The notes below the pieces were generated by a model, which saw only the letters and a program-made list of their open reading frames with translations, was not told the DNA's origin and searched no databases. 64,000 nucleotides of DNA from Escherichia phage vB_EcoS_HdK1. The translations under genes and the position numbers were made by a program. This document shows positions 1-64,000 of this stretch, piece by piece (the stretch's first letter is position 1; each line of letters starts with the position of its first letter). Location: the sequence record MK373794.1; one strand, written 5' to 3'.

Positions 1-105
1 TTTATATAAATACACACATATACACATTTTTACCTTATTTTTCATGCACTTACCTCCTTTCATTTCGTATATTAAGCGACAATATACGAGCAATATAAGA
101 AATAT

Positions 106-119
106 TTGTTGCGCAACAA
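106..119. repeat. Perfect 14-bp palindrome TTGTTGCGCAACAA in the non-coding control region (second copy at 60798..60811)
   Basis: Read directly from the sequence; lies in the ~1.07-kb non-coding region spanning 60336..60692 and 1..678. Confidence 0.6.
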
Positions 120-617
120 CGAGGCGCTCACAAGCTCGCGCACGCGCATAATGCGGGCACGCGGTCTAACACAAAAGAAAATTGAATTGCAAGCGATTTT
201 TGCTGAGGTAACTCTCGAAGCGAAAGCGATTTGCGAGTTTGAAATTTTGTAGCCCGAAAACGATTCTATTTTATGGTATAAATGTCGGATTTTTCGGTGA
301 AAGGTGGCTTTTCGGTGAGGTTGGGTGGCTGGGATCGGTGTAACTGGTAGCCCATAAAGCGAAAATAGCCGCGAAAACGGGGCACGCAGCGCGATTAAAT
401 GGTTGGATCAGTGTAAGGGTGGCGGTGAGGGGGCGAAAATGCCGCAAAATCGCTTACAGGGATGCAGGGAGTGGGCCGCTGTAAGGGCGTATAAGGCGAT
501 TAAATTGGAGTCTATGGTAATGTATGGAAGATGGATTTAGGCTCTTAGAGCGCGAATGGTGGAGCTATGGGTGAGGAATATGTGGTCAGCAGGGTAGCGC
601 GGGAGGTTATGCAGGTA

Positions 618-660
618 CAAAAACGAAAGCGCCCCGTTGGACTTCAACAGGGCGCGGATT
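618..660 (-). terminator. Rho-independent terminator ending the leftward early operon
   Basis: GC-rich inverted repeat GCGCCC..GGGCGC directly downstream of the stop of the 679..927 gene; on the minus strand it is followed by a T-rich tract. Confidence 0.55.
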
Positions 661-678
661 GTATAATGCTTTTAGAAG

Positions 679-927
679 TTATTTACTAGTTAATAATACC
701 GCCCAGGTATTATCTGGAAGCGTACCAACTCCGAGTATCTTAAACTGAAGCGACTTGTTCTGCATGTTGTAGTTGTCGAGTAACTCCTGGGCAGCCGCAG
801 CAGCGTTCGCTTCACCGTTCAGGTTGTAGTCGTTTGCAGTTATTGCACACATACCGAGACCGACCGCTTTGAAGCGCATACCTTTGGATTGAGTCGGTGC
901 AAGTGCTTTAACATGGATAGCGTTCAT
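679..927 (-). CDS. Hypothetical early protein, 82 aa (paralog family A)
   Basis: ORF track; shares an AAAA(Q/E)EL..F(K/E)ILG/SGG..P(D)..(W/Y)A pattern with the 1458..1703 product. Confidence 0.5.
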   Translation of the reverse strand: MNAIHVKALAPTQSKGMRFKAVGLGMCAITANDYNLNGEANAAAAAQELLDNYNMQNKSLQFKILGVGTLPDNTWAVLLTSK

Positions 928-956
928 ATTATTTATCTCCGTTACAATTTGAAAGG

Positions 957-1220
957 TTAGCAGTTTTTTAACAGGTTGATGAAGCCCACCAGCGTGGACG
1001 CTGTTGCAACCAGGCGGCCCATAGTATGCAGTTCCGCGTAAACTTTACCGTCGTCAAACACAGTTAAATAAACGTTAAGACCATTGCAACGGACGCGATA
1101 TTTGCGCGAGTTATTACCAAAAGTTTCCAGCTCTGCGGTGATAGTCGCAAGATTAGCTATACGTTTGCCGATAATGCGGCGAGTGATAGTGGACTGGTTT
1201 AATACTGTAGACATAATCAT
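957..1220 (-). CDS. Hypothetical early protein, 87 aa (paralog family B)
   Basis: ORF track; N-terminal motif STITRRIIGKRI matches SQITKRIIGKRL of the 2529..2835 product; AGAGG ribosome-binding site upstream. Confidence 0.5.
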   Translation of the reverse strand: MIMSTVLNQSTITRRIIGKRIANLATITAELETFGNNSRKYRVRCNGLNVYLTVFDDGKVYAELHTMGRLVATASTLVGFINLLKNC

Positions 1221-1245
1221 TTCCTCTGTTAACTATGCGAAGTGC

Positions 1246-1274
1246 ATATTATTGCCCACTGTTACTATGGGCAA
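1246..1274 (-). promoter_or_regulatory. Sigma70-like promoter (minus strand: -35 TTGCCC, 17-bp spacer, -10 TAATAT) overlapped by an inverted repeat (candidate operator)
   Basis: Hexamers and spacing read from the reverse complement; inverted repeat TTGCCCA-N9-TGGGCAA at 1252..1274 covers the -35 box and spacer; lies 26 bp upstream of the 957..1220 start. Confidence 0.45.
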
Positions 1275-1282
1275 TGTATATG

Positions 1283-1447
1283 TCACTCAGCGGACACATA
1301 TTCTAACGCTTCTGATAGTGTAGCGAAGTAACCATCGCTCACCAGATTAATAGCGTACTCAAGTTGATCGCGGGTCAGGTTGCGAAACTTGTTACGGATG
1401 TGATAGCAACGACCGCGATAAATAACCTGGAAATAGTTGCGTTCCAT
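1283..1447 (-). CDS. Hypothetical small protein, 54 aa
   Basis: Internal ATG of the 1283..1603 track ORF preceded by AAGGGG; the longer track ORF would overlap the neighbouring gene. Confidence 0.4.
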   Translation of the reverse strand: MERNYFQVIYRGRCYHIRNKFRNLTRDQLEYAINLVSDGYFATLSEALEYVSAE

Positions 1448-1457
1448 AATTATCCCC

Positions 1458-1703
1458 TTATGCAACGATGAACGCGTAACCGCTTTGATCCGGGAGTTCA
1501 CCACCGGAAAGAATTTCAAACTCAACGCCCGCTTTATCGCTGAACTTTTTGATAAGCTCTTCCGCTGCGGCGCGGTGGTTGCCGTAAACACCAAGATCGT
1601 CACGCCACGTGATAGTCAAGGAGCCGTTCCAACCTGTTGCTTTTACGCGCGGGTTACGGGTGGCAGTCGGGTTCATGAATTTTGTGATGATAGCTTGAGC
1701 CAT
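1458..1703 (-). CDS. Hypothetical early protein, 81 aa (paralog family A)
   Basis: ORF track; paralogous to the 679..927 product. Confidence 0.5.
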   Translation of the reverse strand: MAQAIITKFMNPTATRNPRVKATGWNGSLTITWRDDLGVYGNHRAAAEELIKKFSDKAGVEFEILSGGELPDQSGYAFIVA

Positions 1704-1708
1704 GATAA

Positions 1709-1894
1709 TTACTCCGGTAAAATTACAGTGACGTTAATATTTGCAAGGCGAGCGCACTCGCGGAAACCTTTTACATAAGCATCCATTTCGTCATAGGATG
1801 CGAAAGTTGCGTCCGGGACTGGTCCGTTGTTAATATTCACGCAATATTCGTGTTCGTCCAGGTCAACCCAACAAGTCAGAACGATAGTTTCCAT
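1709..1894 (-). CDS. Hypothetical small protein, about 61 aa
   Basis: Internal ATG (METIVL..) preceded by GGAGGG; acidic, Cys-containing. Confidence 0.4.
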   Translation of the reverse strand: METIVLTCWVDLDEHEYCVNINNGPVPDATFASYDEMDAYVKGFRECARLANINVTVILPE

Positions 1895-1972
1895 ATTATT
1901 TGCCCTCCGTATAATACAGACCCGCAACTATTGGAGCTCCGAAAACTAAGAAAGCTAATAAATAGAACATAA

Positions 1973-2452
1973 TTAGTTACCCCCTTTATTGTTGAGCCCG
2001 TTGAATTTACGCCATGCGTAGAATTCAATCGTTGCATTATTAATATTCCAACCATTAGCTTTCGCAAGGTCACGGACGTTACCAATAGTTGGCACACCAT
2101 CAGGCAACATATTATCCAGGGCATTCCAAACGTCTGCGCATTTACCTTTAATCGGGCGACGAACCCCGTTGCGCGTTTCGCTGCGCGTTTTGCTCTTGGC
2201 TGGAGCGACCGGAGCTTGTTGTGTGGTCACTTCCACGACAGTCGCTTTATCAGCTTCCACCAGATCGCTAGCTGCCTTATTAACCGCGCTTTCGCTGTAC
2301 CAGTAGCGACCACCGTCTTCGTGCGGTTCCTGGTGAATAAAGCTATTTGCTGTCGCAGTGTCCACATCCAGAACCTTTTTTAAGGCACGGCGAGCGTTAG
2401 ACATAGTGGCGAAGAAGCGAGCGTCTTTTGCTACGCGAGTGATAGTAACCAT
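1973..2452 (-). CDS. Hypothetical early protein, about 159 aa
   Basis: ORF track; start placed at the ATG preceded by GGAGAT; no recognisable catalytic motif. Confidence 0.45.
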   Translation of the reverse strand: MVTITRVAKDARFFATMSNARRALKKVLDVDTATANSFIHQEPHEDGGRYWYSESAVNKAASDLVEADKATVVEVTTQQAPVAPAKSKTRSETRNGVRRPIKGKCADVWNALDNMLPDGVPTIGNVRDLAKANGWNINNATIEFYAWRKFNGLNNKGGN

Positions 2453-2492
2453 TGTGAATATCTCCATGTTGTTCTAGCGGATTGCTAGTGGG

Positions 2493-2513
2493 AGCCCACT
2501 GTTACAATGGGCA
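2493..2513. repeat. Second copy of the conserved inverted-repeat element GCCCACTGTTAC(A/T)ATGGGCAA
   Basis: Near-identical to 1252..1274; both sit in intergenic gaps between leftward early genes. Confidence 0.55.
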
Positions 2514-2528
2514 ACCATTAGCACGCTA

Positions 2529-2835
2529 TTATTGTTGAATAGCTTTATCTATCATTGCGATGAAGCAGAACACAGACCAAAGGCTATTCGCTTGGCATAC
2601 TGCGCGACCATACATTACGCTATAAGAGCTGACAGTACCGTCCTCGTTAATGCGAATATATAACGCGGTGCTGGAATACTTTTCGTTGCCCGGGAGCATT
2701 ACTAAATACTCGTCGAAACCCCAATCCCCGTCGACTTTTTCCGCAGTAAGGCCCAGTTGGTGCAGTCGCTTGCCAATAATGCGCTTAGTAATCTGAGATT
2801 GGGACATGGAACGCGGTAAGTAGATAATGGACATA
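2529..2835 (-). CDS. Hypothetical early protein, about 102 aa (paralog family B)
   Basis: ORF track; start placed at the ATG preceded by AAGGGAG; paralogous to the 957..1220 product. Confidence 0.5.
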
Positions 2836-2909
2836 ATGCAATCTCCCTTCGGGTGAGGCGGGCGCGGAACCCGTGTCCCGCTTAACAACCCCCTTAACCC
2901 TACACAGTT

Positions 2910-2938
2910 ATAGTATGACAACGGGGTATCAGATGCAA
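2910..2938 (-). promoter_or_regulatory. Sigma70-like early promoter for the leftward operon (minus strand: -35 TTGCAT, 17 bp, -10 TACTAT)
   Basis: Hexamers and spacing read from the reverse complement, about 75 bp upstream of the first leftward gene. Confidence 0.4.
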
Positions 2939-3014
2939 CTATTATCTGCAATATTTTAGAACTTTTTTAGTTGTGTTTCATAATAATAACATCCGGGACT
3001 ATGCGGTAGATGGT

Positions 3015-3088
3015 GTGCCGGAAATACCAGGTAGCGCGAGCGTGCCGAAAATACCAGGTAACAGCACGCGCCGAACATACCAGGTAGC
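3015..3088. repeat. Three tandem ~27-bp iteron-like repeats (core ATACCAGGTA) followed by an AT-rich tract; candidate origin or protein-binding array (second copy 63707..63780)
   Basis: GTGCCGGAAATACCAGGTAGC / GTGCCGAAAATACCAGGTAAC / CGCCGAACATACCAGGTAGC read directly; AT-rich stretch at about 3130..3230. Confidence 0.55.
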
Positions 3089-3476
3089 ACATACATAGAC
3101 AGCACATAGTGGGCAGGTGGATAGTAACAGATGCAATTATACTGGACGGTACAGTATAGTCATGTAATAGATAGCATACTAATTAAATAAAAAATAATAA
3201 CGCGTGTAACAATAAACAACGTTACAGTAGAGCGCGCAACAGTCACATGACGTAACAATCACCTCACTGACGATCACGGGACGTTATAGTAACGCCGCGG
3301 GGCGGCTCTTAGATCTCTGCCAAGGATTCTAGACGTAAACATTGAATCGCCACTAGACTATTTACATCACAACCTCACTCCTCACACAATAATACATAGA
3401 ATTTAAATCCGTATATAAATACTCGAGATAGTATCTACATATTCGAGGATGAGTGCTCAATCATTGTAGGTTATAA

Positions 3477-3956
3477 ATGCGTATCAATTGGTGTGATTAT
3501 TTCTCTTACGAAGATGGTAGACTTTACTGGAAGGCCAGTAGAGGAAGAATACGAGTAGGTTCAGAAGCCGGAAGCGAGGACCAACAAGGTTACATTGTGG
3601 TCAGGTTAAACGGGAAAGATTATAAAGCCCACCGCATCATTTGGGAAATGCACTATGGGCCGATACCAGAAGGAATGGAAGTTGACCACATTTGGCATAA
3701 CCGAAAAGATAACCGGATTGAGAATCTGCGGTTAGTGACGCGTACAGGTAATGGGCGTAATCAGTCTAAATTTGCGACAAATACATCAGGTGTAACTGGT
3801 GTGAATTGGAATAGCCGGGCTGGTAAATGGAGAGCGGAAATTTATGTTGATGGAAAGCATATATCTCTTGGTTTATTCACAATCTTTAATGATGCTGTCT
3901 TAGCGCGTAAATCGGCCGAGGCTAAGTATGGTTTCCATAAAAATCATGGCGAGTGA
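3477..3956 (+). CDS. HNH endonuclease with a C-terminal AP2-like DNA-binding domain (homing-endonuclease type)
   Basis: HNH motif region AHRIIWEMHYGPIPEGMEVDHIWHNRKDNRIENLRLV, then a GVTGV..W.A.I pattern typical of AP2 domains. Confidence 0.8.
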   Translation: MRINWCDYFSYEDGRLYWKASRGRIRVGSEAGSEDQQGYIVVRLNGKDYKAHRIIWEMHYGPIPEGMEVDHIWHNRKDNRIENLRLVTRTGNGRNQSKFATNTSGVTGVNWNSRAGKWRAEIYVDGKHISLGLFTIFNDAVLARKSAEAKYGFHKNHGE

Positions 3957-11936: not shown

Positions 11937-12815
11937 ATGAACAAATATCACATTCATCTAGCGGTAGCTTATTCCGCTGGCTTCTTCCAGTCCATGCCTC
12001 GTTTTGGTGCATTGGAACTTGAATATACTTCTGAGGATGAAATCCCGGAAAACGCTCGTGAGTATTATTCCCAAGAAGGTGATAAGTGGATCCTCACTGG
12101 TGTAAAGGGTGGCGGCAAACAGAATATTGACAGGTTGCAATCCGCACTTGAAAAAGAACGCAACGATCATAAAGCGGTTAAGAGTAAGCTAAGTAAGCTG
12201 AACGGACGTGATATTGACGAACTCTTGCAGCGCGACGCTGAATATGAAGAGCTTAAACTGCGTGCGGATAAAGTTGATGATGAAAAGTTGGAGCAGATCA
12301 TTAACGTGCGAATCCGTAACAAGTTGACTCCGCTTGAGCGTGAACGTGACGAGCTGAAAAACAAACTTTCCACCTATGAGAAGCAAGTGGAAGAGCTGAC
12401 CACAAAAGAGAAGAACCGCATCGTTAAGACCGCTCTGAGCAAGGCTGCAATGTCTGCTAAAGTGATCACGGAAGCTATCGACGATGTGGAACTGATTGGT
12501 TCTCGTTTGTTTGAGCTCACCGAAGACGGTCAGGTTGTAACACGCGACGGTGTGGGTGTAACTCCGGGCATCACTCCAGAAATGTGGTTACAGGACATTC
12601 AGGATAAGAAACCTCACTGGTTCCCTGGAAACGTTGGCGGTGGTGCTGGTGGCTCCCGTACTCCTGGCGCGGCTGGTAAGAACCCGTGGAGTGCTGACGG
12701 TTGGAACCTTACTGAACAGGGTAAAATTCTTCGTGAAAATCCTGAAAAAGCAGGCCGTCTGGCAGCCATGGTTGGCGTGGACTTGAAGCGTCCAGTACGT
12801 CCAGTTAAAAAATAA
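11937..12815 (+). CDS. Putative scaffolding protein
   Basis: Charged, coiled-coil-like, Gly/Pro-rich C-terminus; between portal and major capsid; start placed at the ATG preceded by GGAG. Confidence 0.5.
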   Translation: MNKYHIHLAVAYSAGFFQSMPRFGALELEYTSEDEIPENAREYYSQEGDKWILTGVKGGGKQNIDRLQSALEKERNDHKAVKSKLSKLNGRDIDELLQRDAEYEELKLRADKVDDEKLEQIINVRIRNKLTPLERERDELKNKLSTYEKQVEELTTKEKNRIVKTALSKAAMSAKVITEAIDDVELIGSRLFELTEDGQVVTRDGVGVTPGITPEMWLQDIQDKKPHWFPGNVGGGAGGSRTPGAAGKNPWSADGWNLTEQGKILRENPEKAGRLAAMVGVDLKRPVRPVKK

Positions 12816-54610: not shown

Positions 54611-54636
54611 ATGGGCGCATATAGCGCCCATTTTTT
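54611..54636. terminator. Terminator after the plus-strand moron (also downstream of the primase-like gene end)
   Basis: ATGGGCGC..GCGCCCAT stem followed by TTTTTT. Confidence 0.6.
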
Positions 54637-57201
54637 ATAACTTAATAACTTCGTTCATTCTCTCAATATCTACCAAATAACACTTCATTCTCGGTGGTGT
54701 AAACTCTGCGCCGAAGAAATTTGAAAAGTCCATTGGCCTCATCTCGGTAAGAACTTCCATAGACATCAAACCATAGATTGTATTGTCTATGACCTGTAGG
54801 ATGTTGTCATTTCTTGTCTGTTTAAAAGCCTTGAACTGGCGACATACTGTGCATAGATCACTCCTTGTGACAATAAATGCGTCCTTAAACATGGGAAACC
54901 GTTTATATACACCAGCTTTAACTTCACCATCCAAGAACTTCTTAATGGAGTTCAGCATTATCTTCTCACGACTTGTACTGTCCGTAGAACCAATCTGCCC
55001 ACTGTTACGCTTCTCTAAGAAACGCTCGTTACCCTGATCGATAAATGACTCAGCCCAACGATAATGTTCCATAGTGACAACAGGACGCTCACTGTTATCT
55101 GCAACAGCAAGAAGAGAAGCTATACGCAATACCTTCAACGCCTTCCTTGTGTACATCTGACGAATTACTTCGTCTTGCACCTGCTCACCATCATTGCCGC
55201 TGTTCAGGAACTTCGCAACAATATTATCAAGATTATCAAACGCTTCGTGTACCTCTGCTTCCATTTCAACATAACACGGAGCAGTCCCTGACATAATACG
55301 CACAGCTTGTTTATAGATAGCTCCAATAGTGCGCAGTATTGCTTCTGGATATTCCAGGAGCATACTCTTATTCATCAATGGGCGGTTAGCTGTACATTCC
55401 CATGCGATAATACGGGACATGAAACCACTCGACATCATGCGGTCATCTACGTTCCCGTAAAATTCATCTGGTGTTGTTTCACCTGCAAAACTATACGCCT
55501 TAACCTTACCGCCAGCAGTCGTATTATCTTTACTAGAGTGCTTTGAACCACCAGAGAAAGCATAGAAATGCCCCTTGTCATAAAGGGAAAGCATTTCATC
55601 CATAATGTCTTTAGCTTTACCGACTTCCATCTTACCGTTACGGAAAAAATGCACCGACTTCAGTCTTATAGTTAATGGATGAGCCACAAGACATAACGGA
55701 CGTATCCATTATGACATCCTTGCGCAATGCAGCATCAGACGCATAGGTACTTGTATCCAAGACACGTTCGATACCAAATATCTGCTGACCGTCTTGACCG
55801 CCATAATTGGATACTTGAGAAAAAAAAGAATAGTTTCAATGTTGGAGCGAAACGCTTCTTTACCAATACCAGAACGTGCAATTAGTACAAAGTAGTTATT
55901 CAAACCACTTCGTGTGACTGTGTTCCACGCCTTACCGCACATACCACTAAATAAAGCAAGCGCAGACAGAATACTAATGTCTTTAATAGGCAACAAGCTC
56001 GCTTTATACATATTACGCGCAACCTCGCCCATAAAGCCCGGAGGCCAAGCCAAACCGTCTGCCTGCTCTTCAGTGTAATTACCATCTGTAGTCAACACTT
56101 CTTCAGGTGGGCGTTCTGGTGTAGTTGCTTGACGTAGTTTTTCCGTGCGCTCTATAGCTGCATTAACGTTATTCTGAACTATCTGCATAAGTCCCATAGA
56201 TTTAACATGGGCATCGTAGCGATAGTTGCGAATCATTCTATCCAGGTGGTACGGACGTTTAATTTTTTCACCAGGCATACGACGGGGAATCATCGTAACG
56301 GCTACTCATTGGTGAATACATGAATAGACGTCTTACCTGGAAATTGTACTTACTCTTAAAGCAAAGAAAGTCAATTAATGCAAATTCTGCTTCAGACTGA
56401 GAAGGGAAACAACGTTCACCGATTAGAAGTATCAACTTCTTCAGCTCTCCAACGACCCTCCCATAGCTGCTTAAACAATGTTCCGTTTTCTTGTTCGCAC
56501 AACTGAATATAGACATCCTGGTCTTCCATTGCATATGGGTCGTTACTAAAATCTTCTTCAGTAAGTTCCAGCATTTGGAAGCCATCAGACTCATTAATCT
56601 CACTCATCTCAGACATAAGTTGGATGAATGAGATTAGCGATATACCCTTCGCTTTCACTGCCTGGAGCACCAGACACAGTGCGCGGGAGTAAAGTAACAT
56701 CCCAGTGATCCCCTGTACAGATAATAAAACGATACTGGGAATACACTTCCACACCGTCACGGCGCTTACCAGCCTGAGGGGATGGAATAAATCCATGTGT
56801 GCAACCCATCACCGCTTCTGGAAATTTCCGTATAGCTATGGAAACGATTCAACAATCTTCTTATATCGCTCACCAGCAACTTTCTTTTCCATTTCAGACA
56901 TGGTATCTTTAATGTCCATGTCGATACAACAGAACGGGTCACTTGGAAGTAGATAGAAACCTAAACGCAAGTTATGACCAATCTCGTTATAATAACGAAC
57001 GCAGCGTTCAGCATCTTCAAAAGACATAAGTAAATGCAGGTTAGACGGTTTCTTATCATTACCGTCTTTACGAAGTGGGACCATATCCCCTAAATCATCG
57101 TCCCATACATAAGGTTGTTTTTCTGATGATGTACCCGGATGGAAACCGCAGACAGCCCACTGTTCGTATTGTTTAATTTCTTGAGGAAAAAGTTCCAGCA
57201 T
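54635..57201 (-). CDS. Putative bifunctional DNA primase-polymerase (AEP-type N-terminal domain plus C-terminal domain), fragmented into at least five ORFs by apparent frameshifts
   Basis: Track ORFs 54635..55687, 55709..56293, 56416..56796 and 56836..57201 plus alternate-frame readings form one continuous coding region; AEP-like motifs CIDMD and RSGDGLH; frame changes at plus-strand A6 (55645..55650) and A8 (55821..55828) runs. Confidence 0.45.
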
Positions 57202-59116: not shown

Positions 59117-59446
59117 TTAATTTGCATGTTCACCTCGAAGCAGACGCTCGAGCTTCGATTTATTTTTGATAAGCTGATATTGCCGATCCACCACAAGCGC
59201 CTTCTGACGGTTACGCATAAGGTATTCGAACGCACTTTGAAAATCTTCGACTTTACCTTCATAACCTAAAGCCTTGGCGACGTGCGACACGCGATGGAAC
59301 AGAAAGTCCGCAAAGTCCATAATTTCCATCGCATTGACAATAGCGTCAAGTAAATCAGGATTTATATTCGGGTCCACCTTTTTAGCTTGTTCAAGAAGTC
59401 GCACCTTTGCTTTATATAAAGGTGAATTGCTTACTGTTTGCATCAC
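59117..59446 (-). CDS. Hypothetical protein, 109 aa
   Basis: ORF track. Confidence 0.4.
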   Translation of the reverse strand: MMQTVSNSPLYKAKVRLLEQAKKVDPNINPDLLDAIVNAMEIMDFADFLFHRVSHVAKALGYEGKVEDFQSAFEYLMRNRQKALVVDRQYQLIKNKSKLERLLRGEHAN

Positions 59447-60335
59447 TTCCTCCAGATATCACGCGATTCTTTAATACGGATGTTATACCGTATAAGTTGC
59501 TGCATAACTTTATGCAGGTCATCGAGATGCTTCCTTAAACGAAGACGTTTCTTGATAGCCCACAAGTTCTTCATATCCGTTCGTTGGAGATCCTCCCTTA
59601 AATACAATGAAAAGTCAGTCTGGTGATCTAAGATAAATTGGATACGCATCAAAGTATCCGACTTACGATAATCAGGATACCACTTAGGAAGCACATCTTG
59701 TTCGCCAATCATCTTACGCTCCAAACTGATCAATGTATTCAATGAGCTCTTGCAATTCTTGCTGTAACTGCACATTACCACTATTATTCGTCTGAAGTCT
59801 AACGAGGCGTTCCTTGATATGTGCAATGTGGTTAGTGCCCATCCGACGCTTCTGTACATCACACCAGCGAACAACACCATCTTCAATATATGCACGACGG
59901 GCTTTACCACGCGGGTATCGCAGCGGCGCCGAATTTCACACTTATCGCCCACCCACTTAAAGCCCAGGATCATAACAGCGTTACCTTCCGTATCAGGACA
60001 CACGTCAAAACAACTGTTGAACCCTTTACTGCGCATATACTCGTCGAGCGGAATCACCTTATCAGGCGACAACCATTGATACCCGAAGTAAATATCGACA
60101 GTGAACACCGTACCCAACATCGGAGCCGACCAGCACATATACATCCGCCCGTCATCCAACTTCTTGACCGCATTCGGCCCGCAACACGAGGCCAGCCGCC
60201 TTCCACGCTTTGACCACATTAATCGTGTTGTCCTGCTCCTGAAAGATTGCGTCTGCCTGCATATATGTAGGCGCGTCCCAGCCCGAACATTTCCTTTACA
60301 TGAGCATTAGTGATTTTAACCTTTTGATTGCGCAT
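59443..60335 (-). CDS. First gene of the leftward replication-block operon; hypothetical, with apparent internal frameshifts
   Basis: ATG at 60335 preceded by AGGTGAGG; protein-like reading switches frame at least twice before joining track ORF 59443..60219. Confidence 0.3.
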
Positions 60336-60414
60336 AACCTCACCTTTGATGATAATAAATCGATTAATTTTGAAATTCAGTTGCCGGTTTTATGTTTATT
60401 TTACGCAATGTGTT

Positions 60415-60545
60415 TTGCAATACAATATTGATATATTTTGTTTTTGCATTGCAATGTTTTTGTATTGCAAAAATTACAACAGTCTGAAGGTGAGAAATTG
60501 CAAATTTATAAAGATTGGTGAAAAAATGCACAATTTATAAAGATT
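60415..60545. promoter_or_regulatory. Early control region with four ATTGCAA/TTGCAAT half-site motifs (one perfect palindrome ATTGCAAT at 60448..60455) and a 14-bp direct repeat AATTTATAAAGATT (60503..60516 and 60532..60545)
   Basis: Motifs read directly from the sequence in the AT-rich region upstream of the leftward replication operon. Confidence 0.45.
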
Positions 60546-61309
60546 CAGCAATATACGAAACGGCGAAGCGAAGTGTATGAAAAATAAGGGAAAATTTCGA
60601 GAGTTGGGAGGTTTGTAGTGATTTATATTATTTATAAAGGGGTCTCGTGGGGTCGTCAGTAGACAACTCAAAAATAAAAAATCTTTATAAAATTTATATA
60701 AATACACACATATACACATTTTTACCTTATTTTTCATGCACTTACCTCCTTTCATTTCGTATATTAAGCGACAATATACGAGCAATATAAGAAATATTTG
60801 TTGCGCAACAACGAGGCGCTCACAAGCTCGCGCACGCGCATAATGCGGGCACGCGGTCTAACACAAAAGAAAATTGAATTGCAAGCGATTTTTGCTGAGG
60901 TAACTCTCGAAGCGAAAGCGATTTGCGAGTTTGAAATTTTGTAGCCCGAAAACGATTCTATTTTATGGTATAAATGTCGGATTTTTCGGTGAAAGGTGGC
61001 TTTTCGGTGAGGTTGGGTGGCTGGGATCGGTGTAACTGGTAGCCCATAAAGCGAAAATAGCCGCGAAAACGGGGCACGCAGCGCGATTAAATGGTTGGAT
61101 CAGTGTAAGGGTGGCGGTGAGGGGGCGAAAATGCCGCAAAATCGCTTACAGGGATGCAGGGAGTGGGCCGCTGTAAGGGCGTATAAGGCGATTAAATTGG
61201 AGTCTATGGTAATGTATGGAAGATGGATTTAGGCTCTTAGAGCGCGAATGGTGGAGCTATGGGTGAGGAATATGTGGTCAGCAGGGTAGCGCGGGAGGTT
61301 ATGCAGGTA

Positions 61310-61352
61310 CAAAAACGAAAGCGCCCCGTTGGACTTCAACAGGGCGCGGATT
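61310..61352 (-). terminator. Second copy of the early-operon terminator (same as 618..660)
   Basis: Within the terminal duplication. Confidence 0.55.
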
Positions 61353-61370
61353 GTATAATGCTTTTAGAAG

Positions 61371-61619
61371 TTATTTACTAGTTAATAATACCGCCCAGGT
61401 ATTATCTGGAAGCGTACCAACTCCGAGTATCTTAAACTGAAGCGACTTGTTCTGCATGTTGTAGTTGTCGAGTAACTCCTGGGCAGCCGCAGCAGCGTTC
61501 GCTTCACCGTTCAGGTTGTAGTCGTTTGCAGTTATTGCACACATACCGAGACCGACCGCTTTGAAGCGCATACCTTTGGATTGAGTCGGTGCAAGTGCTT
61601 TAACATGGATAGCGTTCAT
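61371..61619 (-). CDS. Duplicate of the 679..927 gene (paralog family A)
   Basis: Identical translation in the ORF track. Confidence 0.5.
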   Translation of the reverse strand: MNAIHVKALAPTQSKGMRFKAVGLGMCAITANDYNLNGEANAAAAAQELLDNYNMQNKSLQFKILGVGTLPDNTWAVLLTSK

Positions 61620-61648
61620 ATTATTTATCTCCGTTACAATTTGAAAGG

Positions 61649-61912
61649 TTAGCAGTTTTTTAACAGGTTGATGAAGCCCACCAGCGTGGACGCTGTTGCA
61701 ACCAGGCGGCCCATAGTATGCAGTTCCGCGTAAACTTTACCGTCGTCAAACACAGTTAAATAAACGTTAAGACCATTGCAACGGACGCGATATTTGCGCG
61801 AGTTATTACCAAAAGTTTCCAGCTCTGCGGTGATAGTCGCAAGATTAGCTATACGTTTGCCGATAATGCGGCGAGTGATAGTGGACTGGTTTAATACTGT
61901 AGACATAATCAT
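61649..61912 (-). CDS. Duplicate of the 957..1220 gene (paralog family B)
   Basis: Identical translation in the ORF track. Confidence 0.5.
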   Translation of the reverse strand: MIMSTVLNQSTITRRIIGKRIANLATITAELETFGNNSRKYRVRCNGLNVYLTVFDDGKVYAELHTMGRLVATASTLVGFINLLKNC

Positions 61913-61974
61913 TTCCTCTGTTAACTATGCGAAGTGCATATTATTGCCCACTGTTACTATGGGCAATGTATATG

Positions 61975-62139
61975 TCACTCAGCGGACACATATTCTAACG
62001 CTTCTGATAGTGTAGCGAAGTAACCATCGCTCACCAGATTAATAGCGTACTCAAGTTGATCGCGGGTCAGGTTGCGAAACTTGTTACGGATGTGATAGCA
62101 ACGACCGCGATAAATAACCTGGAAATAGTTGCGTTCCAT
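61975..62139 (-). CDS. Duplicate of the 1283..1447 gene
   Basis: Within the terminal duplication. Confidence 0.4.
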   Translation of the reverse strand: MERNYFQVIYRGRCYHIRNKFRNLTRDQLEYAINLVSDGYFATLSEALEYVSAE

Positions 62140-62149
62140 AATTATCCCC

Positions 62150-62395
62150 TTATGCAACGATGAACGCGTAACCGCTTTGATCCGGGAGTTCACCACCGGA
62201 AAGAATTTCAAACTCAACGCCCGCTTTATCGCTGAACTTTTTGATAAGCTCTTCCGCTGCGGCGCGGTGGTTGCCGTAAACACCAAGATCGTCACGCCAC
62301 GTGATAGTCAAGGAGCCGTTCCAACCTGTTGCTTTTACGCGCGGGTTACGGGTGGCAGTCGGGTTCATGAATTTTGTGATGATAGCTTGAGCCAT
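62150..62395 (-). CDS. Duplicate of the 1458..1703 gene
   Basis: Identical translation in the ORF track. Confidence 0.5.
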   Translation of the reverse strand: MAQAIITKFMNPTATRNPRVKATGWNGSLTITWRDDLGVYGNHRAAAEELIKKFSDKAGVEFEILSGGELPDQSGYAFIVA

Positions 62396-62400
62396 GATAA

Positions 62401-62586
62401 TTACTCCGGTAAAATTACAGTGACGTTAATATTTGCAAGGCGAGCGCACTCGCGGAAACCTTTTACATAAGCATCCATTTCGTCATAGGATGCGAAAGTT
62501 GCGTCCGGGACTGGTCCGTTGTTAATATTCACGCAATATTCGTGTTCGTCCAGGTCAACCCAACAAGTCAGAACGATAGTTTCCAT
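62401..62586 (-). CDS. Duplicate of the 1709..1894 gene
   Basis: Within the terminal duplication. Confidence 0.4.
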   Translation of the reverse strand: METIVLTCWVDLDEHEYCVNINNGPVPDATFASYDEMDAYVKGFRECARLANINVTVILPE

Positions 62587-62664
62587 ATTATTTGCCCTCC
62601 GTATAATACAGACCCGCAACTATTGGAGCTCCGAAAACTAAGAAAGCTAATAAATAGAACATAA

Positions 62665-63144
62665 TTAGTTACCCCCTTTATTGTTGAGCCCGTTGAATTT
62701 ACGCCATGCGTAGAATTCAATCGTTGCATTATTAATATTCCAACCATTAGCTTTCGCAAGGTCACGGACGTTACCAATAGTTGGCACACCATCAGGCAAC
62801 ATATTATCCAGGGCATTCCAAACGTCTGCGCATTTACCTTTAATCGGGCGACGAACCCCGTTGCGCGTTTCGCTGCGCGTTTTGCTCTTGGCTGGAGCGA
62901 CCGGAGCTTGTTGTGTGGTCACTTCCACGACAGTCGCTTTATCAGCTTCCACCAGATCGCTAGCTGCCTTATTAACCGCGCTTTCGCTGTACCAGTAGCG
63001 ACCACCGTCTTCGTGCGGTTCCTGGTGAATAAAGCTATTTGCTGTCGCAGTGTCCACATCCAGAACCTTTTTTAAGGCACGGCGAGCGTTAGACATAGTG
63101 GCGAAGAAGCGAGCGTCTTTTGCTACGCGAGTGATAGTAACCAT
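62665..63144 (-). CDS. Duplicate of the 1973..2452 gene
   Basis: Identical translation in the ORF track. Confidence 0.45.
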   Translation of the reverse strand: MVTITRVAKDARFFATMSNARRALKKVLDVDTATANSFIHQEPHEDGGRYWYSESAVNKAASDLVEADKATVVEVTTQQAPVAPAKSKTRSETRNGVRRPIKGKCADVWNALDNMLPDGVPTIGNVRDLAKANGWNINNATIEFYAWRKFNGLNNKGGN

Positions 63145-63220
63145 TGTGAATATCTCCATGTTGTTCTAGCGGATTGCTAGTGGGAGCCCACTGTTACAAT
63201 GGGCAACCATTAGCACGCTA

Positions 63221-63527
63221 TTATTGTTGAATAGCTTTATCTATCATTGCGATGAAGCAGAACACAGACCAAAGGCTATTCGCTTGGCATACTGCGCGAC
63301 CATACATTACGCTATAAGAGCTGACAGTACCGTCCTCGTTAATGCGAATATATAACGCGGTGCTGGAATACTTTTCGTTGCCCGGGAGCATTACTAAATA
63401 CTCGTCGAAACCCCAATCCCCGTCGACTTTTTCCGCAGTAAGGCCCAGTTGGTGCAGTCGCTTGCCAATAATGCGCTTAGTAATCTGAGATTGGGACATG
63501 GAACGCGGTAAGTAGATAATGGACATA
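63221..63527 (-). CDS. Duplicate of the 2529..2835 gene
   Basis: Identical translation in the ORF track. Confidence 0.5.
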
Positions 63528-63706
63528 ATGCAATCTCCCTTCGGGTGAGGCGGGCGCGGAACCCGTGTCCCGCTTAACAACCCCCTTAACCCTACACAGT
63601 TATAGTATGACAACGGGGTATCAGATGCAACTATTATCTGCAATATTTTAGAACTTTTTTAGTTGTGTTTCATAATAATAACATCCGGGACTATGCGGTA
63701 GATGGT

Positions 63707-63780
63707 GTGCCGGAAATACCAGGTAGCGCGAGCGTGCCGAAAATACCAGGTAACAGCACGCGCCGAACATACCAGGTAGC
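63707..63780. repeat. Second copy of the three tandem iteron-like repeats (same as 3015..3088)
   Basis: Within the terminal duplication. Confidence 0.55.
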
Positions 63781-64000
63781 ACATACATAGACAGCACATA
63801 GTGGGCAGGTGGATAGTAACAGATGCAATTATACTGGACGGTACAGTATAGTCATGTAATAGATAGCATACTAATTAAATAAAAAATAATAACGCGTGTA
63901 ACAATAAACAACGTTACAGTAGAGCGCGCAACAGTCACATGACGTAACAATCACCTCACTGACGATCACGGGACGTTATAGTAACGCCGCGGGGCGGCTC

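Follow-up and report, generated by a model that had tools for sequence, protein, structure and literature searches.

The subject of this analysis is a G-rich, repeat-dense segment at positions 280–600 of a 64,000-nucleotide (nt) stretch of DNA from Escherichia phage vB_EcoS_HdK1 (sequence record MK373794.1), the whole of which is referred to here as the window. The first 1300 bases of the window match 17 phage records at 88–97% identity, all of them Nonagvirus (9g-like, Queuovirinae), and judged by its sequence the window is a Nonagvirus phage. The segment is a real, conserved non-coding cis element, neither an artefact nor a structured RNA, and it is best read as a case of a known type, the protein-binding regulatory or origin-type array of a phage control region. 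The more specific reading proposed below, to which we give somewhat less than an even chance, is that the segment may be an array of double-stranded DNA (dsDNA) sites for a protein, placed around a rightward promoter in an origin- and terminus-proximal control region. This reading was chosen because the motif evidence was the strongest and provided the sole sequence-level signal to hold across lineages.

The terminal repeat, the untranslated gap and its counterparts in related phages

In a self-comparison, positions 1–3308 were 100% identical to positions 60693–64000 over 3308 nt, indicating a genome unit of 60,692 bp followed by a long direct terminal repeat (DTR); the segment is therefore inside the terminal repeat, as the first-pass annotation had stated, with a second, identical copy at 60972–61292. 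The related record HdSG1 (63,595 bp, DTR of about 3,363 bp) has the 5' end TTTATAAAGGGGTCTCG, opening with TTTATAAAGGGG, and the 3' end GCCGCGGGGCGGCTC, closing with GGCGGCTC; the end of the window is identical, and TTTATAAAGGGG is present in the right DTR copy at 60631. The match to these deposited ends makes base 64000 the right terminus and sets the left terminus, as placed from database deposits only, 62 nt to the left of base 1. The DTR then has a full length of ~3.37 kb and the segment sits ~340–660 bp inside its left end. In phage 9g, 91 read starts piled up at one position in the divergent-promoter gap, and this position marks the counterpart of the right DTR boundary here (PMC4276943).

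In the concatemer, the untranslated stretch extends for about 970 bp, from 60341 to 61320, and the segment constitutes its G-rich right half. From left to right, the gap consists of an AT-rich part, a terminus block, a hypervariable stretch (75–165), a conserved block (166–282), the G-rich stretch (283–628), and an intrinsic terminator (655–629). The gap is bordered on the right by seven small genes, a leftward operon wholly within the repeat, and on the left, across the junction, by a leftward operon that includes the helicase-primase; both were classed as 'early' in the description of 9g (PMC4276943). The AT-rich character of the left half continues into the first 74 bases of the window (GC 0.24; genome, 0.44), and this left half possesses two repeats of its own. 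TTGCAA, itself palindromic, occurs four times in 60415–60498 (P=9e-5), and TTTATAAAG occurs at 60505, 60534, and 60631 on the + strand and at 60683 on the - strand, with 4/4 of its genomic copies in the gap and the copy at 60631 coinciding with the deposited left terminus of HdSG1. The terminator, which falls just beyond the flagged coordinates, is alone among the RNA structures of the region in having clean compensatory changes (GC to AU on both sides in two pairs, in outgroup lineages). Plotted along the genome, cumulative GC skew forms a clean Λ that bottoms out at this junction and peaks at 33.5 kb, in coincidence with gene orientation.

Based on an alignment of 13 Nonagvirus genomes, pairwise identity is 0.92–0.94 in the segment, 0.96 in the block 166–282, and 0.97 in the block from -62 to +74 around the terminus. 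Third codon positions in two well-aligned flanking genes have an identity of 0.83–0.84 (first positions, 0.92; second positions, 0.94–0.98), so the segment is clearly conserved in related phages and under constraint, though below the level of the terminus and 166–282 blocks. The core of the latter, AAAACGATTCTATTTTAT (257–274), is identical in all outgroup lineages and occurs once in the genome.

More distant relatives were reached along several routes. Three phages of ~60 kb, Klebsiella Kpn2-P2, K9PH25C2, and Escherichia Ec1-ASingh, were found through a homolog of the neighbouring 82-aa gene and share the synteny, with a gap of 1.25 kb, and a pattern search found the contig L053; filtering of the pattern matches with nhmmer kept L053, L064, L106, and L141. 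The 17-mer AAACGATTCTATTTTAT was dropped as a metagenome probe for relatives as it is too AT-rich and nearly all of its matches were due to chance. The L053 and Klebsiella-type gaps align with the window only partly, at ~50% identity, and retain the blocks CAAGCGAT, AAAACGATTCTATTTTAT, AAAATCGC, GTGGTCA, and TGTATAATGC, plus the terminator, together with a same-sense composition (G 0.30–0.34, C 0.17–0.18; 11–13 runs of three or more G vs 0–2 runs of three or more C). Where the window has TTTTCGGTGA twice, the Klebsiella-type gaps possess a GCTAAC array of ~7 copies and L053 has mixed GCTAA/TTTTTCGG elements; in Kpn2-P2 (L022 3600–3730; also L023 and L024), the GCTAAC/GCTAAT units are spaced at 13–18 nt directly after the AAAACGATTCTATTTTAT block, and the array is not found in Nonagvirus.

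In the sister genus Seuratvirus (CAjan, L176), a 630-bp gap with a G-skewed stretch of ~200 nt lies at the same place. The CAjan skew is unexceptional genome-wide and CAjan was rejected as support for the G skew. Within this gap, a dozen CCCTATA/TAGGG repeats in both orientations (970–1250) precede a stretch of 19–25% GC (1250–1420), a layout whose sequence suggests a classical origin.

Phage JenP1 (L013) carries a rightward HNH homing-endonuclease cassette in place of window ~450–678, and the same cassette is present at the same place in the metagenomic L185 and L188. The cassette (JenP1 2921–3394; L188, reverse complement, ~2024–2497) has its insertion point within window 444–453, in the second of two bipartite repeat units (Table 1), and brings its own TGGTATAATGC promoter and a GGGAGG ribosome-binding site. 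The replacement in JenP1 and L188 indicates that the right half of the segment, with one GGTGAGG, one GCGATTAAAT, the quadruplex-type motif, and the terminator, is dispensable or replaceable. The invariant 24-mer of the segment also occurs in an orphan 902-nt contig of a Dyella japonica assembly (L177, NZ_JPLA01000135.1), most likely a phage contamination of that assembly.

Repeats, half-sites and promoter-like elements

The first-pass annotation had described the segment as unusually G-rich on the plus strand, dense in short direct repeats, and free of any credible open reading frame (ORF), and all three descriptions held. The segment contains 122 G vs 45 C (skew +0.46), the strongest G-over-C skew in the genome, with the top ten G-skewed 321-nt windows of the 60.7-kb genome all at 221–321 (+0.46 to +0.48; genome-wide mean, 0.00; standard deviation, 0.13). 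Every quoted repeat was located, including GGTGAGG at 314, 424, and 570 and the gapped repeat as GCGAAAATAGCCGCGAAAACGG (359–380) and GCGAAAATGCCGCAAAATCGC (433–453), the two being 74 bp apart, and GTAAGGG at 413 and 481 can be added. Repeated k-mers exceeded those of 1000 dinucleotide-preserving shuffles at k=6–10 (P=0.006, 0.005, 0.003, 0.014, and 0.03, respectively); the longest exact repeat (10 nt) is unexceptional alone (P=0.12). No tandem array was found within the segment by Tandem Repeats Finder (TRF) and a reading as a tandem repeat array was dropped. A coding sequence was annotated here in none of 12 relatives (0/12), and the short ORFs of the segment are disrupted in relatives, where G runs have indels of 1–3 nt, PD328 has a +1 insertion, and ChristophMerian has an ATG to ACG change; a hidden small gene was rejected on these grounds.

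An unbiased scan in which the k-mers of 166–628 were compared with the rest of the genome identified CGAAAA/TTTTCG (6 vs 22; P=3e-8) and GCGATT/AATCGC (5 vs 17; P=3e-7). Written as one pattern, GCGAWWW/WWWTCGC occurs eight times in 166–628 compared to 0.47 expected on the basis of the remaining genome (17-fold, P=4e-8) and six times in 280–600 (P=1e-6). The half-sites lie on the + strand at 193, 226, 359, 371, 391, 433, and 496 and on the - strand at 447, such that 7/8 share one orientation, and eleven sites are reached when the CCGAAAA/TTTTCGG sub-type is included. The gapped repeat of ~20 nt, present twice, consists of two half-sites around GCCGC. Phasing at 10.5 bp, roughly on one helical face, gave R=0.69 (P~0.02) with the eight sites and R=0.60 (P~0.01) with all eleven, though the sites are few.

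The same motif is enriched in the gaps of sister lineages, including the Klebsiella-type (8 vs 1.4, P=9e-5), L188 (14 vs 1.1, P=2e-11), and L053 (P=0.02, with TTTCGCGAAA), and is not enriched in the CAjan gap. L188 possesses six palindromes of the form W2TCGCGAW2 (AATCGCGATT-type), four of them in tandem at 16–19 bp spacing, and the palindrome TTTTCGCGAAAA is present in the L053 and Klebsiella-type gaps. These sister-lineage palindromes indicate that both repeat families of the window are half-sites of one dyad, W3-TCGCGA-W3, and as a palindrome without a loop cannot form an RNA hairpin, they point to a dsDNA site for a dimeric protein. Of the options raised by the first-pass annotation, the protein-binding array is the one that these enrichments and palindromes support. 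Neither the array motifs nor the 257–274 block recur at other promoters of the genome.

A rightward promoter-like element, P1 (TGGTATAAA), fits a TGnTATAAT-like consensus at 8/9 positions, is invariant in the 13 Nonagvirus genomes and in 19 distinct sequences, and ends the longest invariant run of the block. It is flanked by the inverted repeat CCGAAAA (254–260)/TTTTCGG (291–297), has no match to a -35 element, and its -10 is kept only loosely in the outgroups. The near-identical TGGTATAATGC lies ~30 nt before the start codon of the rightward HNH genes of JenP1 and L188, which supports this type of sequence as a putative working rightward promoter in these phages. A second such element, P2, has an equivalent in CAjan (TTGTGA-18-TATAATGC; L176 ~1488–1520), and the conservation in four lineages of a rightward TATAATGC promoter-like element aimed at the 3' end of the early operon suggests antisense transcription or transcriptional interference against that leftward operon. 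A leftward promoter in the invariant block was rejected; the - strand has the hexamers TAGAAT and TAAAAT, yet no -35 at a workable spacing.

Table 1. Coordinates of features in and around the segment (window positions)
Feature	Position	Strand	Basis or remarks
DTR, left copy	1..3308 as shown in the window	.	self-identity; right copy 60693–64000, true extent 60631–64000
AT-rich left half of the gap	60341..60692	.	GC 0.30; TTGCAA x4, TTTATAAAG x3 + 1 inverted
Conserved block upstream of the segment	166..282	.	GCGATTT half-sites 193, 226; 38-nt invariant run 245–282
P1, predicted extended -10 TGgTATAAA	274..282	+	rightward into the G-rich segment; predicted start near 289
Flagged G-rich, ORF-free segment	280..600	.	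composition, ORF list, conservation; feature really reaches ~628
TTTTCGGTGA, two direct copies 18 nt apart	291..318	+	starts 291, 309; no further copies in the genome
Bipartite unit 1, GCGAAAAT-A-GCCGC-GAAAACGG	359..380	+	two GCGAAAA half-sites; inside 25-nt invariant run 359–383
GCGATTAAAT, a GCGAWWW half-site	391..400; second copy 496–505	+	repeat search
Bipartite unit 2, GCGAAAAT-GCCGC-AAAATCGC	433..453	.	half-sites 433 (+), 447 (-); right arm an inverted repeat with AAGCGATTTT at 191
G-quadruplex-type motif GGGATGCAGGGAGTGGGCCGCTGTAAGGG	459..487	+	sole such motif on the genome + strand; type defined by four runs of three or more G with short loops
Intrinsic terminator of the leftward early operon	629..655	-	11-bp stem then UUUCGUUUUU; annotated in HdSG1, SP8
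P2, promoter-like TTGTATAATGC	659..669	+	into the 3' end of the leftward operon; identical in all outgroups

Proposed function of the array and alternative explanations

A mechanism can be outlined in which a dimeric sequence-specific protein, probably encoded by the phage, would bind the sites cooperatively and form one nucleoprotein complex specific to this locus. Such a complex would belong to a replication origin, with initiator sites beside an AT-rich unwinding stretch, and rightward transcription from P1 over the G-rich non-template strand would assist the origin, comparable to lambda ori activation and to R-loop-primed origins. That the array is an origin component is our committed guess, made because of the AT-rich neighbour (the adjacent unwinding-type stretch expected at an iteron-type origin), the place upstream of the replication operon, the iteron-like arrays in five lineages, and the skew minimum. 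In five lineages the gap keeps its place immediately upstream of the helicase-primase operon, and the repeat arrays within it are lineage-specific, including GCTAAC x7 in the Klebsiella-type, tandem palindromes in L188, and CCCTATA/TAGGG with a 19% GC stretch in CAjan.

Several observations weigh against this interpretation. The full palindrome is absent in the window, which has half-sites only; the P-values for phasing are modest and rest on 8–11 sites; and the positional equivalence to L188 is loose, as the L188 palindromes lie to the left of a terminus-like sequence and the sites of the window to the right of the terminus. JenP1 and L188 look viable and lack 450–678, such that half of the segment is dispensable. 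A search for the binding protein with Pfam, PHROGs, and PDB sequences gave no informative family among the neighbouring small proteins, and the 164-aa protein yielded no usable single-sequence AlphaFold model (pLDDT 42). The GC-skew minimum is confounded by gene orientation, and the choice of an origin over an operator or a terminase site is one that we infer. Lastly, the strand composition is kept at ~50% identity (G 0.30–0.41, C 0.14–0.18), which a dsDNA array does not need and which suggests a further constraint at the level of a single strand or a transcript. The G-containing sites in one orientation account for part of the G skew, though probably not all of it. As the array explains the conserved strand composition poorly, a transcript-level layer is likely superimposed, either a Rho-loading (rut) zone or a G-rich RNA/R-loop.

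Both candidates for this layer can also be considered as complete explanations of the segment. In the case of a rut zone on the transcript of the leftward early operon, Rho would catch polymerase reading past the terminator at 655–629, which would insulate the terminus/origin region and separate the expression of the immediate-early genes from that of the replication genes; we consider this unlikely as a full account, though it merits more weight than the other alternatives. Sites of the rut type are C-rich, G-poor, and unstructured over 70–80 nt or more, and the composition of the leftward RNA is that of a textbook Rho-loading site. The - strand RNA (628>280) has 38% C and 14% G, a median C/G in 78-nt windows of 2.62 (genome 99th percentile, 2.47), 21.8 YC dimers per 100 nt compared to 10.3 genome-wide, and a weak fold (z=-0.5; -67 kcal/mol for the 377 nt that include the terminator). 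It follows directly downstream of the last gene of the operon and has no ORF, the same-sense skew is retained in L053 and the Klebsiella-type at ~50% identity, and in a simple scan no canonical leftward sigma-70 promoter was found between the terminator and the next operon, which fits control of read-through. However, a strong intrinsic terminator already precedes the segment, and a rut zone needs no nucleotide-level conservation, oriented repeated motifs, palindromes, or helical phasing. Site by site in the segment alignment, conservation of G (C on the RNA) does not exceed that of A or C, such that specific conservation of the G residues was rejected, the CAjan skew does not stand out in its own genome, and the apparent skew of L188 is the antisense of HNH coding sequence, for which reason L185 and L188 were rejected as independent evidence of downstream C-richness.

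An unstructured G-rich non-coding RNA of ~340 nt, running from P1 (~289) to or through the hairpin at 629–655, could work as a sponge, as an R-loop primer, or against the leftward early operon by antisense or transcriptional interference. For this RNA, which we regard as rather improbable, the evidence includes the invariant P1 element, the same promoter type before the co-oriented HNH genes of JenP1 and L188, and -10-like hexamers (A at -11, T at -7) within 1 nt of the P1 position in L053 and the Klebsiella-type, as well as 12 runs of three or more G vs one such run of C, one motif of the quadruplex or R-loop-initiation type, and a general excess of G over C in the mRNA-sense strands of the genome. 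Yet P1 is without a -35 element, L188 is without the -10, and the part of the conserved block shared with the outgroups lies upstream of the -10 and not in it. The counts of G runs and of GGA/Shine-Dalgarno-like motifs equal the expectation from composition alone, the quadruplex-type motif is missing in JenP1, and the positions of G runs shift between lineages. The hairpin at 629–655 lacks a U-tract on the + strand, and the RNA has no signal of structure or covariation and no Rfam match. A narrower version, with a P1 RNA of ~340 nt that is encoded twice per virion genome and serves in cis as the R-loop primer of a repeat-embedded origin or in trans as a GGUGAGG/GGGAGG sponge, is a long shot; if true, phage regulatory RNAs would gain a new class, marked out by composition and not by fold.

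A structured RNA, by comparison, was rejected. No Rfam match was found at E<=1 on either strand of window 1–3000, and folding against shuffles gave z-scores of -0.78 (+) and -0.52 (-). The consensus fold of 23 sequences reached -35 kcal/mol vs -114 for the single sequence, with column-shuffle z-scores of -1.8 (+) and -1.9 (-) that vanish within Nonagvirus (-0.7 and -0.1, respectively); a signal so marginal and strand-symmetric would be expected from a few DNA inverted repeats. In L053 and the Klebsiella-type, CCCGAAAA...TTTTCGGG is capable of forming a hairpin, and Nonagvirus has GAAAACGGGG instead of CTTTTCGGGG, so an A-tract in place of the T-tract has abolished the pairing and kept an element of an A/T-tract plus CG. 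The shuffle and slide controls look impressive but are biased, as it was this alignment that supplied the structure, and nearly all of the double changes represent the single split between Nonagvirus and the outgroups. The rejection followed from the single-sequence z-scores, RNAalifold, pair counts, and the column-shuffle null on both strands, and the structured non-coding RNA offered by the first-pass annotation is not supported.

Packaging recognition, likewise offered there, lacks support for this segment, which is probably not the packaging site. A terminase small-subunit array, which would bring in the packaging enzyme a short way inside the repeat's left end, would fit a unique locus within the DTR that lies to the packaged side of the left terminus, with short repeated sites that are palindromic in some sisters and near a terminus-like sequence in L188. 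The array sites begin ~250 bp from the deposited left terminus, however, and the segment is ~340 bp away; the terminus has conserved elements of its own that are better candidates, the -62 to +74 block and the gap-specific TTTATAAAG, and nothing similar to the array is present near the right DTR boundary at 3308. From its position and sequence, TTTATAAAG is a better candidate for terminase cutting or recognition than the segment, and a terminase array is correspondingly improbable. Slightly more doubtful still is a local operator array with a purely transcriptional role, in which a phage regulator on the sites would switch P1 and P2, prevent leftward read-through, or do both. Relative to P1, the sites lie upstream (193, 226), in overlap (the 254/291 inverted repeat), and downstream (359–496), and repressor operators typically have palindromic sites. 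Against this, the main divergent early/late promoter gap (2951–3495) has no copy of the motif, and tandem arrays of at least four sites beside AT-rich DNA are more iteron-like.

Comparison with known systems and significance for the 9g-like phages

The array, read as a set of protein sites at an origin, has its closest parallels in lambda ori (O-protein iterons) and P4 ori/crr (alpha primase-helicase). Shared with these origins are short repeated sites, palindromic or tandem in some lineages, beside an AT-rich stretch, a place just upstream of the replication genes with a large phage helicase-primase (by annotation), a promoter across the region, and a repeat sequence that varies by lineage at a position that is kept. 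In contrast, the sites of the window are half-sites dispersed over ~300 bp and not a compact tandem array, and the candidate origin, known here from sequence alone, is inside the terminal repeat and thus present in two copies per genome. ColE1 RNA II, T4 oriF/oriG, and the mitochondrial CSBs share a promoter after which the non-template strand is G-rich, with its G runs in clusters; unlike at these R-loop-primed origins, there is only promoter-like sequence here, G runs are as numerous as composition predicts, and JenP1 dispenses with the quadruplex-type motif.

The Rho-dependent terminators lambda tR1 and trp t' resemble the leftward RNA of the segment in being untranslated, C-rich (38%), G-poor (14%), weakly structured, and directly after an operon, and differ in that the segment follows a strong intrinsic terminator, has a length of ~350 nt that is far over the need, and possesses conserved oriented motifs. 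Similarly, lambda cosB and the P1 pac hexamer arrays consist of short repeated sites clustered near the terminus on the packaged side, whereas the array here stands off from the deposited cut site by 250–560 bp, the terminus carries another repeat (TTTATAAAG), and there is no counterpart at the other DTR boundary. Phage T5 has a non-coding repeat region at the inner end of its terminal repeat that has been discussed as an injection-stop signal, also a repeat-dense untranslated stretch at the inner edge of a long terminal repeat with small early genes, and it is not known to share sequence similarity with the segment. Two-step DNA entry is not known for 9g-like phages.

Several further features of the region were recorded. 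The stretch 75–165 is hypervariable (pairwise identity, 0.67; GC 0.52), with at least three unrelated alleles between near-invariant non-coding blocks, and its sequence has the look of a hotspot for recombination or replacement, close inside the terminus. All seven proteins of the early operon lack a Pfam match and belong to PHROG families without an assigned function; the operon includes two paralogue pairs (679–927/1458–1703 and 957–1220/2529–2834; phrog_3199 twice and phrog_13865 twice), and its second gene is present or absent among relatives. The helicase-primase, one coding sequence of 849 aa in HdSG1, is split into about five ORFs at 54635–57201, and the 206-aa gene adjoining the gap (59443–60337) has 1- and 2-nt indels compared to all relatives; the two broken genes are either sequencing errors of the assembly or real pseudogenes. 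Three direct repeats of ~26 nt (GTGCCGAAAATACCAGGTAGC...; ACCAGGTA at 3026, 3053, and 3079) lie at 3015–3089, in the divergent early/late promoter gap and ~220–290 bp inside the right DTR boundary, and are the only TRF array in the first 3.4 kb (score 97).

Three further ideas about the segment were tried and set aside. The deazaguanine insertion motif known for CAjan, GA/GGC (PMC10484667), is not enriched (0.18 in the segment vs 0.27 genome-wide). A captured host element or prophage was rejected, with no counterpart in 5,426 E. coli genomes. A protection of the ends by Chi sites was dropped as the segment has none, with at least two mismatches in the best local 8-mers; a canonical Chi (GCTGGTGG) is present at window 986 on the - strand, ~1 kb from the left terminus and in the orientation active for RecBCD entering the left end, with the single + strand Chi located at 12645.

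The 9g-like and related 7-deazaguanine-modified phages are models of DNA hypermodification and candidates for therapy, and the segment provides a concrete entry point to the unmapped origin, early-to-middle switch, and packaging signals of the deazaguanine-modified phages. A conserved control region of ~1 kb is now defined at the inner edge of the terminal repeat and divided into three parts (terminus-proximal, promoter block, and binding-site array), and the motif GCGAWWW/W3TCGCGAW3, with its coordinates, can now be tested. The recurrent landing of an HNH homing-endonuclease cassette at this place amounts to a natural deletion that reveals the dispensable half. If the array is neither an origin nor a switch, the segment would be a well-delimited, ordinary regulatory spacer; if it is one of the two, it would offer a handle for the engineering of these phages.

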